Made by a program: the position numbers and the translations under genes. A DNA stretch of 64,000 nt from Cirrosporium novae-zelandiae (Eukaryota), in contig JAPETS010000022.1 in NCBI GenBank assembly GCA_026023565.1, forward strand, positions 434,001 to 498,000. Direction: 5' to 3'. Shown here in pieces: positions 34,869 to 39,733 of the stretch (within the stretch, counting starts at the first letter, position 1; each line of letters opens with the position of its first letter). The notes below the pieces were generated by a model, which was given only the letters and a program-made list of their open reading frames with translations, searched no databases and was not told where the DNA came from.

Positions 34869-35367
34869 ACTTAGACGTTTATCTGACACGATACCTCAAG
34901 TATATTCATGTACAGTTCTAGTCAGTAACAGGTGTAGGAGAAATAATCCTCAGAAAAGATCTATCGAGCTAGAATTTTCGTCAGAGAATGGATGTTAGAA
35001 ACGCGTAGTTCACGTTGAAGGAATTATCATTCTGATGGCTGGTGGTGATTGTATTCTCTTGGCCTGTGTTAATATCTCAGCATTGGCCGCTCTAGCTTTC
35101 TTACTGGTACTTTCAAACCTAGAGAATCGGCTAGACAAGCCTAGGATAACTATCTAAGTATATAATTATTACCCATTTCTATACTAGTTATTGTTCAAAA
35201 GTAGAAGTATTATTGTCATATTTTTCTTTAATTTCAAGCAGATTTAAATTCATGTACTGAAGAAGGGAGGCTCTCTATTAGTTTGGTTTTCAGATATTGA
35301 TTCCTGAGGATCAAGGTGTGAAAGAGTATGTAAGACAGCTTTCCTCGCTTAGCATTTTCAAATCCAG

Positions 35368-35573
35368 GCACGCGGGTCCCAAAAAAAATCAGAAAATGAT
35401 CCTAGGGAGGCCTTCAAACAAAATGAATTTTTAATTTCAATAACAATTCCATTTGAAGGCCTCCCCAAAGTCCTAGAATACATAAAAATTGATTTTGTTT
35501 AAAGGTCTCCCCAGGAAAAATAATAATTAAAAAAGGGAATTTGTGAGTCCCGTTTACTTTGGGACCCGCGTGC
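35368..35573. mobile_element. MITE, 206 bp, with perfect 16-bp TIRs and a 3-bp CAG target-site duplication
   Basis: Reads CAG|GCACGCGGGTCCCAAA ... TTTGGGACCCGCGTGC|CAG. AT-rich non-coding interior; related copies near 8.0 kb and 29.8 kb. Confidence 0.85.
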
Positions 35574-35940
35574 CAGCTAAGATTTTTTTACGTCAAACAA
35601 CCATTTATTCCCAGACGCAGAATACTTTGACGAACAGAGACGAGTTTTGTCGTTTACAGAGAAAGACGTGTAGATGAAGGATAGTGGAAGAATGGTCTTG
35701 TTTGAGTTGGTCTAAGGAAATGAACCTAATTACAGCCTGGGTGTATCCATTGTGGCTCTTCCTCAAGTAATCCAATGCCCATTTATTAACCCCTTCTACT
35801 TCAAAGACATCTTCTAAACAAAAGAAACTTCTTGTTTGGTCTCTCTATCATCACTGAACAATCCTAGAATCATTAGCCATGTTGATGGATACAGTCTTAA
35901 AATCAAAACTTACTGACGAGGAGAGACATTGCCCATTGGC

Positions 35941-36338
35941 TTACGCAGTAATCTCATCTTTTGCTAGCAGAACTGCATCTTCAACGCGAATTTGGAGGGT
36001 ATTCTTTGCCAATAGGGTTGTGTCGTCCGACCGCTTTGTGAAGATTATTTCATCTCCTTTATCTTGAAATGTCAGCCAAATTCGATAGTCATATAAGGAA
36101 GATAGGGAGTGTTAAAAGAGCTTAGTTGTTTGCCTAAATGTGATAGGATGGAAACGAACATATCAAACTTACCACTTTTGCCTGCTTTGAGTTCCACACG
36201 AGCAACGAAATCGCGCTCAGTTGGATTGGCTTCTTCTTCAAGACGCGCCAATAGTGCTAAGTCTTCGGTGGGAGTAGAAAGAGGTGCGCAGAACACGACC
36301 GTAGCAGCCAAAATACCAAAGAATATTCGAGGATACAT
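35941..36338 (-). CDS. Small secreted peptide (about 95 aa), candidate RiPP/KEX2-processed precursor, 2 exons
   Basis: Exon 1 is 36338-36173, intron 36172-36063 (GTAAGT...GCTGAC...AAG), exon 2 is 36062-35941. Product: MYPRIFFGILAATVVFCAPLSTPTEDLALLARLEEEANPTERDFVARVELKAGKSDKGDEIIFTKRSDDTTLLAKNTLQIRVEDAVLLAKDEITA*. It has a signal peptide, one KR site and three (E/D)DxxLLA(K/R) repeats. Confidence 0.72.
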
Positions 36339-36802
36339 GATGACCAAGACCAGAGAGTTTATTTCAATAAGAGCAGGATAAAAATAATCCTACGACTCTA
36401 TTTAAGGATATATTCAAGTCGAGTGAACGAGAGGAGTACCTAGGCACTGTGGAAATGATAGGTTTGAAAGAAGTTGTGGGTGAAACGGAATGCTAATGAA
36501 GGATGGATCGAGGGAATGAGAAAAACTGTGGAATTAATTTATAGTCTCGAGAGGAACACGCGAGCAGCGTGGTGGGTGCATGGGTTGTAGTGTTGGGAGT
36601 CAAAATTGAATATTAACCTCGCCACTCGGTGAGTGAAGACAGTAAGTCTGAGCCATCCCTAATAATATCCATCTCTTCAAGCCCCCCTCCATACTCCAAC
36701 ACTATTTATTAACGAGATCAGTCTTCGTGGGAACTTTTGGAGCGAATATCTCTTCACGGATCTTTCAAGACAATTCCAAGACCCCGGAATCCTATCTTAA
36801 GC

Positions 36803-37867
36803 ATGTATTCGTTGAAAGAGGGACACCATGTTGGATATCATCGAATGTCCATAGAATCAAACAACTCAAGCTCGACTGTGAAGTGGCATTTACTACCTGG
36901 CTTCTTGTGGATTTATGCTAGCCCGTGGATGCTTTGCTCTATGCTTATCCTTGTCTGCTTGTATTTGATCAACTCAAATGGAAAACCATGTCAATGCATG
37001 GAAAGTTTTGAGAAGGGGTTCAAGACCGATTTCAGTATGTTTCCTGTTATCCATTATTTTTCGTTTGATACTAATTCCATACCCTCTTCAGAGCCAGCAA
37101 TCTCGGCGATCAAGGTCCAGCAAATCCGGTTTACAAGTTCTTTAAAACTCAATGAGAGTGGTGAATGGTATCGAGTTCAGGATCCGACCAAGCCAACTTA
37201 CGTCGGTACTCCCTCTCCGGATATTGATCATGCTTGGAATACACTTTTGACGGGTTTGTGGGGACTTAAATCCAACCATCTTAGCACAAACTGATGAGCA
37301 TAAAGGTCGTTATGTCAATTTGACCGGTACCCAAAAGGCAGATTTAGAATCCGAGGGGGTTATTCAAGAGTTCCATCATGGATTCTATGCTGGGTGGGTA
37401 ATTTCTCAATCACATCTCACTGATGTTGATAGTAGTTGATACAATTACTAACAGGTCAACTTGCAGTCCAGATGTCTTCCACTCTTTGCATTGTCTGGTA
37501 TGAAAGCTACAAGTATATCCTATCTATATCTAATGCTAAGCCGTAACCAGAATGCTCTTCGAAAGGTCATCTACAAAGACTACTACGCGGAAGAAATCAA
37601 GTCTGATTTCGGTCTACAAAGCTTGCACATCGGTATGCATATCCCCTTTATCCCCTTACATCTAGAGTTCTACTGACCATTCCAGATCATTGCATGGACC
37701 AATTGAGGCAAGCCGTGCAATGCGCCGGCGACTTGACTCCTGTCACAATCGTTCCAGTCTATAATGGAACGCTCGGCCTTGGTGAGACAGAGAGAACCCA
37801 TACTTGTCGCAATTTTCAAAGTCTATTGGATTGGAAAGCAGAGTTGAAGACAGCAAAGCTCCCTTGA
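36803..37867 (+). CDS. DUF3328 / UstYa-family oxidase, 6 exons, intact
   Basis: N-terminal TM (WIYASPWMLCSMLILVCLYLI), KGFKTDF and YVGTPSPDIDHAWNTLL. After splicing five GT-AG introns: PDVFHSLHCLNALRK...LHIDHCMDQLRQAVQCAGDLTP...HTCRNFQSLLDW, i.e. two HxxHC motifs. The frame stays open to TGA at 37865-37867. Confidence 0.92.
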
Positions 37868-39013
37868 TAAGCTTTTCTGTTGGGGATGGAGACTTTGGAT
37901 GGTGATTGGACTTTGACTATGGATATTATTATGGTGCCCATAATGATGGGAAATAGAGTAAGACTAGGGGCCTATAATAATGTAATAGAGGTTCTTATTG
38001 TCATTATAAGACGATTATTCAGATAATAATGACAGCAAATATCATGGGACTTGCTATTCTTATAGCGACGAGCTCGTCCACTACGGATAATGAAGGTAGA
38101 ATAGACTATACTATAATGCTAAGCTTTCCCAAGTCCTTGTGGTGAGAGAGAGTTCAGATGTCAAAGCTTGTATGGAAACTAAGACTTTATAAGATCGATT
38201 CGATGTATAACGATGGGTAGGGGTAAATCACTCAGTGATGATTCATCACTGATGATGATAAGTAGGCTTGACAAGTGATGCAGCATGATCAGGAGCAGCC
38301 GGCTGATGCAGGAATCGCTATATCTAAATCTTCTAGCTTGGTGATTTCTTTTGCTCAAACGAGTCCCCTTTGGGTTCGGGATTGATGGTCTGTAAAAAAG
38401 AAAGAATTGCCGCCTTACTTTCCTACCTGGTACACTAGTTATTATTAATTTTTTTTTGGTTCAAGTTCATTACATCTATCCTTCCCAAGATGGATAATGC
38501 CCGAAAGTGTAAATTCGGAGATGGTTCGAATTAGTATGAATAGTTCAACCATATTGAGAATTGAGTATTACCAGGTTCATCTTGCAAAGGGTTTAGTGGT
38601 AGACCAAGGGGGTGGTCTCCAATAATAGTCGCCTAACTTACACAGTAGTTGGAAGCAAGAGGGAGAAAAAAGAATGAATCCGCCTGGGCCGTGGGTCCGT
38701 ATTCTATACGATAGCTACAAGTAAAAAAGTGTATGTACCAGGTATTAAAGGTATTAAGCTTGTACATTTCCTTCACCTTTCAGCGCACAGCCTCTTTTCT
38801 TTCTCTACTTCTGTACAGTCTCTTCTCCTCTTTACGTTACTGCAATAATCGGTTGATTATCATCTAAAAAGAAAGAGGACCCATCATCTTAATGGACTTT
38901 CCATCATCCTAACATTACTTTACTTAGCAAGAATATATTTCCACTAAGCCTGAATCACGTCAACGACCGTTCGCGGGATATTGGTGACTGAAAGCTTGAT
39001 CGGTGGAAGCGAG

Positions 39014-39171
39014 CTTGGCAACTTGGCAACTTGGCAAAAACACAAGTTCCTGTGTAAGAGAGTCCGTGGAGTCCGTGGAGTCCAAGACTCGGACTATCAC
39101 CCCCGGTTTCTTCTTGGGAAAGGTGAATGAACGAGGGTCGTAGCATGACGTGAAAAGCTTGGCTGCTTGGC
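39014..39171 (-). promoter_or_regulatory. Cluster of five GCCAAG (PacC/Rim101 consensus GCCARG) sites upstream of palF
   Basis: CTTGGC at 39014, 39022, 39030, 39158 and 39166, plus nearby near-matches (TTTGGC), 560-720 bp upstream of the palF ATG. Confidence 0.7.
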
Positions 39172-39733
39172 TACTTTTGGCTCTTTGGCTGGCCTTACTT
39201 TTGTGCTTTGCTATCTTTGTCCTGCATAACCAGACAGGAATCCAACCGCCGGTAAGTTCAACTCTTGACCCTTTCATCCATCTGCTTGCTGGCGAGTTGT
39301 AAAATACACCTCTGCCTTCGCAATGCCTAAATCGACCTTTAAATACCTCCAGTCCCTTCCTAACCCGTACGCCTACCTTTCCTTCCTTTGATGAACCTGT
39401 TGTCTGACGAGCAACCCATGTCGTCGTCATCTTCAACCCCACGACTCCTTATCTGGAACCTATAATGCGATGGTGTCGTCTGTCAAGTCTATCCGGCAAT
39501 TACGTCGAGTTTATGGCATGATGAACTATCGCGTTATGCGTACCAGGTCGAGATCAAGGGCCTGATAGTCGGCGCACTGCTCTGAGGTCTCTTCTATCGT
39601 CTGACATTATATCTATTGTGTTTGCGCCATGACCATAATTACTGACATGCTGGTCAGCTTAGGCGCCGATACTCGTGGGTCTGTGTTGGCCCCGAGCCTC
39701 TCATCAAAGGGGTAATCAAGATCATTTCATCCA

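Follow-up and report, generated by a model that had tools for sequence, protein, structure and literature searches.

A head-to-head UstYa/DUF3328 oxidase gene and secreted-peptide gene in Cirrosporium novae-zelandiae, a candidate two-gene modified-peptide cassette

Here we describe a divergent gene pair in a window of 64,000 nucleotides, the whole stretch of DNA analysed, from Cirrosporium novae-zelandiae (GenBank assembly GCA_026023565.1, contig JAPETS010000022.1, positions 434,001 to 498,000 of the forward strand; coordinates below count from the first letter of the window). In this pair, a gene encoding a 95-amino-acid (95-aa) peptide on the minus strand stands head-to-head with a UstYa/DUF3328 oxidase gene on the plus strand, their start codons 464 base pairs (bp) apart. 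We consider it somewhat probable, at about 55%, that the locus is a minimal two-gene cassette in which the peptide serves as the dedicated substrate of the oxidase. This interpretation is carried by the two gene models, the family of the oxidase, a non-random three-fold motif in the peptide and the recurrence of the layout beside related oxidases, and from these we infer the expression, secretion and processing of the pair, the link between enzyme and substrate, and its chemistry.

The strongest competing explanation, which is less probable and still weighty, holds the two genes to be coincidental neighbours. The substrate of the oxidase (another peptide, or the product of a non-ribosomal peptide synthetase (NRPS) or a polyketide pathway) would then be encoded elsewhere, and the 95-aa gene would specify an unrelated, fast-evolving secreted protein, perhaps a helical surface protein or one resembling an effector, with a Leu-rich motif that arose by helix duplication. 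In that case, the locus would be nothing out of the ordinary, a UstYa orphan next to the gene of a secreted orphan protein, and both kinds are plentiful in fungal genomes.

The oxidase gene and its divergent neighbour

Gene models were obtained by reading the region directly and enumerating GT..AG introns, giving the following features.

36803..37867, plus strand: UstYa/DUF3328 oxidase gene, six exons, 258 aa, open spliced model
36803-37034, 37092-37253, 37306-37393, 37467-37497, 37551-37632 and 37686-37867 (stop included), plus strand: oxidase exons
36893..36973, plus strand: predicted N-terminal membrane helix, about residues 31-57 (Kyte-Doolittle; aligned with the hydrophobic segment of homologues)
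37480..37494, plus strand: HSLHC (residues 166-170), the first HxxHC motif, wholly inside exon 4
37626..37693, plus strand: HIDHC (residues 197-201), the second HxxHC motif, interrupted by intron 5 (37633-37685)
36339..36802, no strand: shared divergent intergenic region, 464 bp, with coordinates from both gene models
36173..36338, minus strand: first exon of the small-peptide gene (residues 1-55 and one further base), codon score 0.19-0.20 bits/codon
36285-36338, minus strand: signal-like segment, residues 1-18, by a crude signal-peptide rule
36243-36266, minus strand: motif copy 1, EDLALLAR, residues 25-32, in exon 1
36063..36172, minus strand: small-gene intron, 110 nucleotides (nt), with GTAAGT donor, CTGAC branch and AAG acceptor
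35941..36062, minus strand: small-peptide gene exon 2, residues 56-95 plus stop, codon score 0.25-0.26 bits/codon
36031-36036, minus strand: single dibasic site, KR65-66, in exon 2
36004-36027, minus strand: motif copy 2, DDTTLLAK, residues 68-75, in exon 2
35959-35982, minus strand: motif copy 3, EDAVLLAK, residues 83-90, in exon 2

The oxidase gene runs from an ATG at 36803 to a stop codon at 37865-37867, and its five introns, 52-73 nt long, are all of the GT..AG type with CTRAY-like branch sites. A public protein from the same locus (P0002, 193 aa, annotated as a hypothetical protein) shares all five introns with our model and starts at an internal Met of it. When searched with the Pfam UstYa profile PF11807, this annotated 193-aa protein scored 125.3 bits (cut-off 25; E 4.2e-36) over profile positions 51-219 of 220, and the last exon alone scored 46.2 bits, bearing out the intact six-exon DUF3328 gene proposed in an earlier reading made from the sequence alone (the sequence-only reading). 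The 258-aa model aligns end to end with homologues of 253-290 aa, their N-terminal hydrophobic segment included; we regard it as better than P0002, because of this alignment and because it restores the membrane helix. The P0002 annotation, which omits 36803-36997, is without the first 65 residues and thus the helix. Intron 1 (37035-37091) is 57 nt long, in frame and stop-free, so that its retention would add 19 residues and keep the frame.

The oxidase carries the arrangement HxxHC(x)26HxxHC. Both motifs had been described as appearing only after splicing, which holds for the second, interrupted between 37632 and 37686, but not for the first, which exon 4 carries whole and which the raw list of open reading frames (ORFs) already shows. 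All six H/C columns of the two motifs are invariant across 22 homologues, as are further R, Q, C, D, T and P columns and a later C-R, and two Cys follow the second motif. The best 19-residue Kyte-Doolittle window (residues 35-53) has a mean of 1.92, and three NxS/T sites lie in the C-terminal domain; a single N-terminal helix is predicted, which would place the catalytic domain in the lumen. The nearest database relatives are 45-48% identical and scattered among the Pezizomycotina, and a sequence search of the Protein Data Bank (PDB) with the oxidase profile returned no related solved structure. Judged by its sequence, the plus-strand gene is an ordinary member of the UstYa/DUF3328 family, and a copper- and O2-dependent, dimeric oxidase activity may be ascribed to its product by family likeness. 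To our knowledge, the sole biochemically characterised members of the family are O2-dependent binuclear-copper oxidases with the catalytic domain facing the lumen of the Golgi, endosome or vacuole.

The cyclochlorotine hydroxylase CctR has been described as a lumen-facing, disulfide-linked dimeric, O2-dependent binuclear-copper hydroxylase of unactivated sp3 C-H bonds, and ApnU and AprY are likewise reported to be copper-dependent, AprY also O2-dependent (PMC12435403). CctR has a disordered N-terminus, one membrane helix and a luminal helical domain with a two-copper HxxHC(x)nHxxHC motif (PMC12435403), and the window oxidase is likened to it by this architecture rather than by measured sequence relatedness. 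The two differ in that CctR acts on a non-ribosomal cyclic peptide and has four C-terminal disulfide Cys, against two in the window oxidase.

Across the 464-bp gap at 36339-36802, the small gene (36338-35941, minus strand) starts with an ATG at 36338, has its splice donor at 36172 and acceptor at 36063, and ends with a stop codon at 35941-35943. The resulting 95-aa model is identical, residue for residue, to the public protein P0001, an independent annotation, in agreement with the divergent two-exon gene of the sequence-only reading. When the long ORFs of the window were used to train a codon-usage log-odds score, the small gene scored 0.218 bits/codon in its own frame and -0.05 to -0.38 in the other five, compared with 0.12-0.21 for trusted genes; of 282 stretches of 60-110 aa free of stops, no more than 0.4% attained its score. 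Both exons score positively and in-frame read-through of the intron scores only 0.059; the intron also has a GC content of 0.35, versus 0.48 and 0.43 for the exons. The N-terminus consists of an n-region with Arg followed by a 12-residue hydrophobic run, and is flagged by our home-made signal rule, a crude one that flags 28 of 307 ORFs of at least 80 aa (9%). Taken together, the 95-aa gene is probably real by these sequence criteria, and its product is probably secreted, as predicted from its N-terminus.

It is accordingly improbable, in our estimation, that the small gene is a prediction artefact in the promoter region of a lone UstYa gene. Such an artefact would fit the lack of homologues described below, the lack of a confident fold and the fact that the matching P0001 is itself a prediction. 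The gene-like codon score confined to the reading frame, the canonical low-GC intron (GTAAGT, CTGAC, AG), the signal-like N-terminus and the non-random motif all speak for a gene. Single-sequence AlphaFold2 prediction gave no confident fold (predicted local distance difference test score, pLDDT, 44.4), and in the ESM Atlas the model had a pLDDT of 0.44 and its best feature score, 0.84, lay in the chance range. A likeness to mating-factor alpha in the ESM Atlas (0.80) was not significant and was set aside, and structure matches were not used given the pLDDT of 0.44.

The peptide contains three copies of an [ED]DxxLLA[KR] motif, spaced 43 and 15 residues apart, such that the last two form a 15-residue tandem. 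By BLOSUM, the best triple window scores 70, where shuffled sequences give 33.8 +/- 5.5 and 0 of 1000 match it, so the three-fold motif is non-random. The description of the small gene as encoding a secreted repeat peptide therefore stands as regards the signal-like N-terminus and the repeat itself, but the repeats are not separated by Kex2 sites.

Recurrence of the layout beside related oxidases

Metagenome contigs scanned with the oxidase profile yielded 32 loci, of which 12 non-duplicate ones with at least 1.8 kb upstream could be examined (L001, L006, L007, L009, L011, L012, L014, L015, L017, L020, L022 and L030). A divergent upstream gene with a signal-like N-terminus is present in seven of these twelve (L006, L011, L012, L014, L015, L022 and L030), with intergenic gaps of about 0.57-1.3 kb; the background for this count is the 9% flag rate of our rule and the published secretome fraction of 7.7% (PMC7329392). 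On the downstream side of the UstYa relatives, no credible signal-peptide gene was seen. The head-to-head layout with a signal-peptide gene thus recurs beside related oxidases, and this comparison gives the cassette interpretation its best support. A synteny check in relatives, as suggested by the sequence-only reading, recovered the layout but no neighbour similar to the 95-aa peptide. The upstream neighbours are as follows.

L006:3094-3417, minus strand: 108-aa secreted peptide, head-to-head with a UstYa homologue
L011:1131-1379, minus strand: 83-aa secreted peptide, head-to-head with a UstYa homologue
L015 and L022, upstream neighbours: homologous Gly/Leu-rich secreted proteins with KR-Q and then LLGGL-type stretches, z 22.9
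L012, upstream neighbour: weaker relative of the L015/L022 type, z 3.1 (L019 is a near-copy of L012)
L014, upstream neighbour: signal exon spliced to a 253-codon open exon
L030 (near-copies L028 and L029), upstream neighbour: textbook precursor with a signal peptide and 5-6 Kex2-flanked repeats

By their sequences, these neighbours belong to several types with no relation to one another, and some of them have repeats bounded by Kex2 sites. The peptides of L006 and L011 share homology (z 9.1 over the full length, 0 of 1000 shuffles; z 4.2-4.5 without the signal) and carry dibasic-flanked units of the IDIA[KR]R type (SIDIARR, TIDIAKR, VDIAKR), with no Pfam family. L011 also has a P450 gene and a Zn2Cys6 regulator gene within 9 kb. 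The neighbours in L012, L014, L015 and L022 are multi-exon Gly/Leu-rich secreted proteins of 150-270 aa, again with no Pfam family, and these pairs adjoin housekeeping-type genes (ketoacyl synthase), indicating that stand-alone two-gene modules recur. The module in these four loci reads secreted-protein gene, divergent UstYa gene and then a convergent ketoacyl-synthase gene, and an OPT oligopeptide transporter is also found in L012 and L015.

L030 served as the positive control for the neighbour screen. It exemplifies the arrangement in L028-L031: its precursor gene (L030:3336-3608, minus strand), whose units end in DGTFG[KR]R, stands head-to-head with the gene of a distant UstYa homologue (28% identity), and genes for a gamma-glutamyl cyclotransferase-like protein and a fungal-rhodopsin-domain protein are found nearby.

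A quick maximum-likelihood (ML) tree joins the window oxidase to L006 and L011 within a group of 21 rows (SH-aLRT 88), and puts the loci with Gly/Leu-rich neighbours in a separate clade (support 99).

Weighing the peptide as the oxidase's substrate

Neighbourhoods of UstYa genes and secreted-peptide genes are very common in fungi, and the window pair is one atypical case among them. In a published survey, DUF3328 gene counts peak right beside Kex2-repeat precursor genes, 1758 of which have a DUF3328 gene nearby (PMC7329392). Kex2-processed repeat precursors resemble the window peptide in having a signal peptide and repeats within the chain, in evolving rapidly, with numerous orphans among them, and in often lying beside DUF3328 genes (PMC7329392).

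A number of results weigh against the 95-aa peptide being the substrate, and the first concern its sequence. The published rule for Kex2-processed repeat precursors calls for at least three repeats, each of at least 8 aa, between KR, KK, RK or RR sites (PMC7329392), a rule that the window peptide fails: it has one dibasic site only, KR65-66, directly after IIFT, each motif copy ends in a single R or K, and the repeats are not tandem throughout. In the known dikaritin macrocycles, Tyr, or in victorin the C-terminal Phe, is joined to Ile or Leu (PMC9233826, PMC7329392). The window motif has no Tyr, Phe, Trp or His, and the only aromatic residues of the mature peptide, F44 and F63, lie outside it, with no Tyr, Trp or His elsewhere. 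Since two defining precursor features were thus tested and found wanting, the locus should not be filed as a dikaritin, and the dikaritin-type label of the sequence-only reading is not supported; nor was a homologue of the peptide found, even beside related oxidases.

The second group of results concerns relatives of the peptide. A word-based search of 5.8 billion clusters matched only the peptide itself, and an exhaustive HMMER search of 1.84 billion representatives returned only itself and two long tandem-repeat proteins. The latter were rejected as homologues, being artefacts because their E-values sum weak matches of about 27 bits per repeat. A PDB sequence search with E up to 1 gave only a 13-bit match, and Pfam assigned no family to the peptide or to six neighbour peptides of relatives, with one sub-threshold stray match. 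Pairwise comparison with the neighbours of related oxidases gave z values of -0.6 to 1.1, which are not significant, and tblastn against the 32 related loci found no relative; one match in L003 (E 0.02) was discarded, as it falls inside a long, cytosolic-looking, unrelated ORF. The 95-aa peptide is therefore treated as an orphan, species-specific as far as these sequence searches reach, and because it has no homologue and no similarity to the neighbours of other oxidases, its link to the window oxidase is one of position. Orphan status is not unusual for this class, since 2560 of 7878 Kex2-processed repeat proteins have no homologue (PMC7329392).

The third group bears on the layout and the enzyme family. 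Five of the twelve examinable loci (L001, L007, L009, L017 and L020) have no divergent signal-peptide neighbour, and the count of seven was made with the home-made signal rule and manual gene models, with no formal control. The placement in the tree is weak, as no strongly supported clade of at most half the rows holds the window oxidase. About 68% of DUF3328 genes do not lie within 15 genes of a Kex2-repeat precursor gene (PMC7329392), and members of the family are also at work in NRPS and polyketide pathways (PMC12048977).

Much of this is what coincidental neighbours would lead one to expect, in particular the other roles of the family, the missing dibasic-flanked repeats and aromatic residues, and the unrelatedness of the peptide to the neighbours of related oxidases. 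A low-confidence AlphaFold helix over residues 26-35, covering the first motif copy, also fits a helical protein. On the other side, signal peptides occur in 7.7% of fungal proteins and tandem repeats in 6.2% of those (PMC7329392), and at these frequencies an immediate divergent neighbour bearing both a signal and repeats is improbable by chance. The layout is also present in seven of the twelve examinable relatives and is kept within the pairs L006/L011 and L015/L022. We therefore favour the peptide as substrate.

That the oxidase instead hydroxylates or cross-links the Leu-rich segments of a secreted protein from which no small peptide is released is very improbable: the single Kex2 site of the window peptide and the neighbours in L012, L014, L015 and L022, which are 150-270-aa proteins rather than short multi-core precursors, would suit it, but the KR sites followed by Leu/Gly-rich stretches in those same neighbours fit peptide release, and the literature considered here reports no DUF3328 enzyme with a folded or full-length protein as its target.

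Among known systems, the closest counterpart of the proposed cassette is asperipin-2a of Aspergillus flavus, which has one DUF3328 protein (AprY), the only one that the pathway requires, with a signal-peptide precursor and no cluster peptidase (PMC7329392, PMC12048977). By analogy, the window locus may work as an atypical variant of a minimal cluster of the asperipin type, with a single oxidase, a single precursor and no peptidase. The asperipin-2a precursor differs in being highly repeated and Kex2-cut, and its bicyclic core is closed via tyrosine side chains (PMC9233826), whereas the window peptide has one dibasic site and no Tyr in its mature part. The ustiloxin and phomopsin systems (UstA/UstYa/UstYb; PhomA/PhomY) likewise combine UstYa oxidases with two HxxHC motifs and a secreted, Golgi-processed precursor. 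Unlike the window peptide, their precursors have many identical cores (YAIG, YVIG, YVIP) between Kex2 sites and yield a Tyr-Ile ether macrocycle, and their clusters also contain, besides several DUF3328 genes, a tyrosinase, a methyltransferase and further tailoring genes (PMC7329392); none of these features is seen at the window locus.

Victorin of Cochliobolus victoriae is a UstYa-associated RiPP (a peptide made on the ribosome and modified after translation) whose aliphatic residues are heavily modified and chlorinated, which shows that Leu-rich cores can be substrates (PMC9233826). It differs from the window system in its multi-core Kex2-processed precursor, its macrocycle from the C-terminal Phe to an internal Leu, and its larger cluster.

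If the peptide is the substrate, both genes would be co-transcribed from the shared 464-bp region, and the 95-aa pre-pro-peptide would enter the endoplasmic reticulum (ER) and Golgi, where its signal peptide would be removed. The oxidase, presumably a type-II membrane-anchored dimeric copper enzyme, would share the Golgi/endosomal lumen with the peptide and might attack side-chain C-H bonds in or near the [ED]DxxLLA[K/R] units, or in the IIFT segment before KR. The chemistry could be hydroxylation, halogenation or cross-linking, the first two being known from this family at aliphatic carbons, and at the IIFT site a Phe-to-aliphatic link as in victorin would be an alternative to hydroxylation or halogenation. 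Kex2 would cleave after KR66, and a further protease, cutting at single basic residues, would be required to free the individual units. Since the units have no aromatic residue, no Tyr-ether macrocycle of the ustiloxin, phomopsin or asperipin type is possible in the repeats, and any product would be a chemotype other than the known dikaritins.

More speculatively, and in our view rather doubtfully, there may be UstYa oxidases wired one-to-one to fast-evolving, non-aromatic secreted peptides that have no Kex2-flanked repeats, outside the dikaritins and beside housekeeping genes. Such systems would make peptides with hydroxylated or halogenated aliphatic C-H positions or with Leu/Ile cross-links, freed at single basic residues, with units of the type [ED]DxxLLA[K/R] in the window and IDIA[KR]R units or Leu/Gly-rich stretches after KR-Q in the relatives. 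Such cassettes would escape current genome mining, whose rules ask for tandem repeats flanked by dibasic sites and for an accompanying peptidase.

Were the window cassette functional, it would be about the smallest fungal modified-peptide system possible, with one oxidase and one peptide, and its substrate would break two mining rules, those of Kex2-flanked tandem repeats and of an aromatic core residue. It would thereby widen the search space for UstYa/DUF3328 substrates, and provide a simple two-gene construct with which to probe the action of this recently defined family of copper enzymes on aliphatic side chains.

Surroundings of the pair

The pair is isolated among housekeeping-type genes as judged from their sequences, in line with the sequence-only reading. 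To its left lies an Rrn10-like ORF that scored 20.6 bits in a Pfam scan (E 5.5e-4), marginally below the cut-off of 20.8, and farther left are sugar and MFS transporter genes, generic and 4-9 kb off, and Mnd1. To the right are Arrestin_N and Arrestin_C ORFs compatible with palF, followed by SHR3. As also proposed earlier, no adjacent tyrosinase or peptidase gene was seen: a scan of the 20 ORFs that lie between 17 and 49 kb and reach 110 aa or more, which genes with short exons could escape, gave no tyrosinase, methyltransferase or peptidase domain, and no second UstYa gene was found in the window. With one UstYa gene and these 20 ORFs, the locus lacks the accessory genes of the original dikaritin definition; later locus definitions drop the requirement for such genes, namely a tyrosinase, a methyltransferase, several DUF3328 genes and a transporter or peptidase (PMC12048977).

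The 464-bp intergenic region is presumed to be a bidirectional promoter. It contains a 14-nt direct repeat of the ACTGTGGAA type at 36446-36459 and 36525-36538, the copies being 86% identical and 79 nt apart, which is a possible regulator-binding site.

A 162-aa stop-free stretch on the minus strand (38960-39448), which separates the UstYa gene from the palF-like arrestin gene, has no Pfam match and is probably non-coding. In the interval from the Rrn10-like gene to the small gene's 3' end, we also observed a nested palindromic element of about 208 bp (35367-35574), with outer arms of 22 nt that are 91% complementary and inner arms of 34 nt that are 88% complementary, which looks like a foldback element of the miniature inverted-repeat transposable element (MITE) type.

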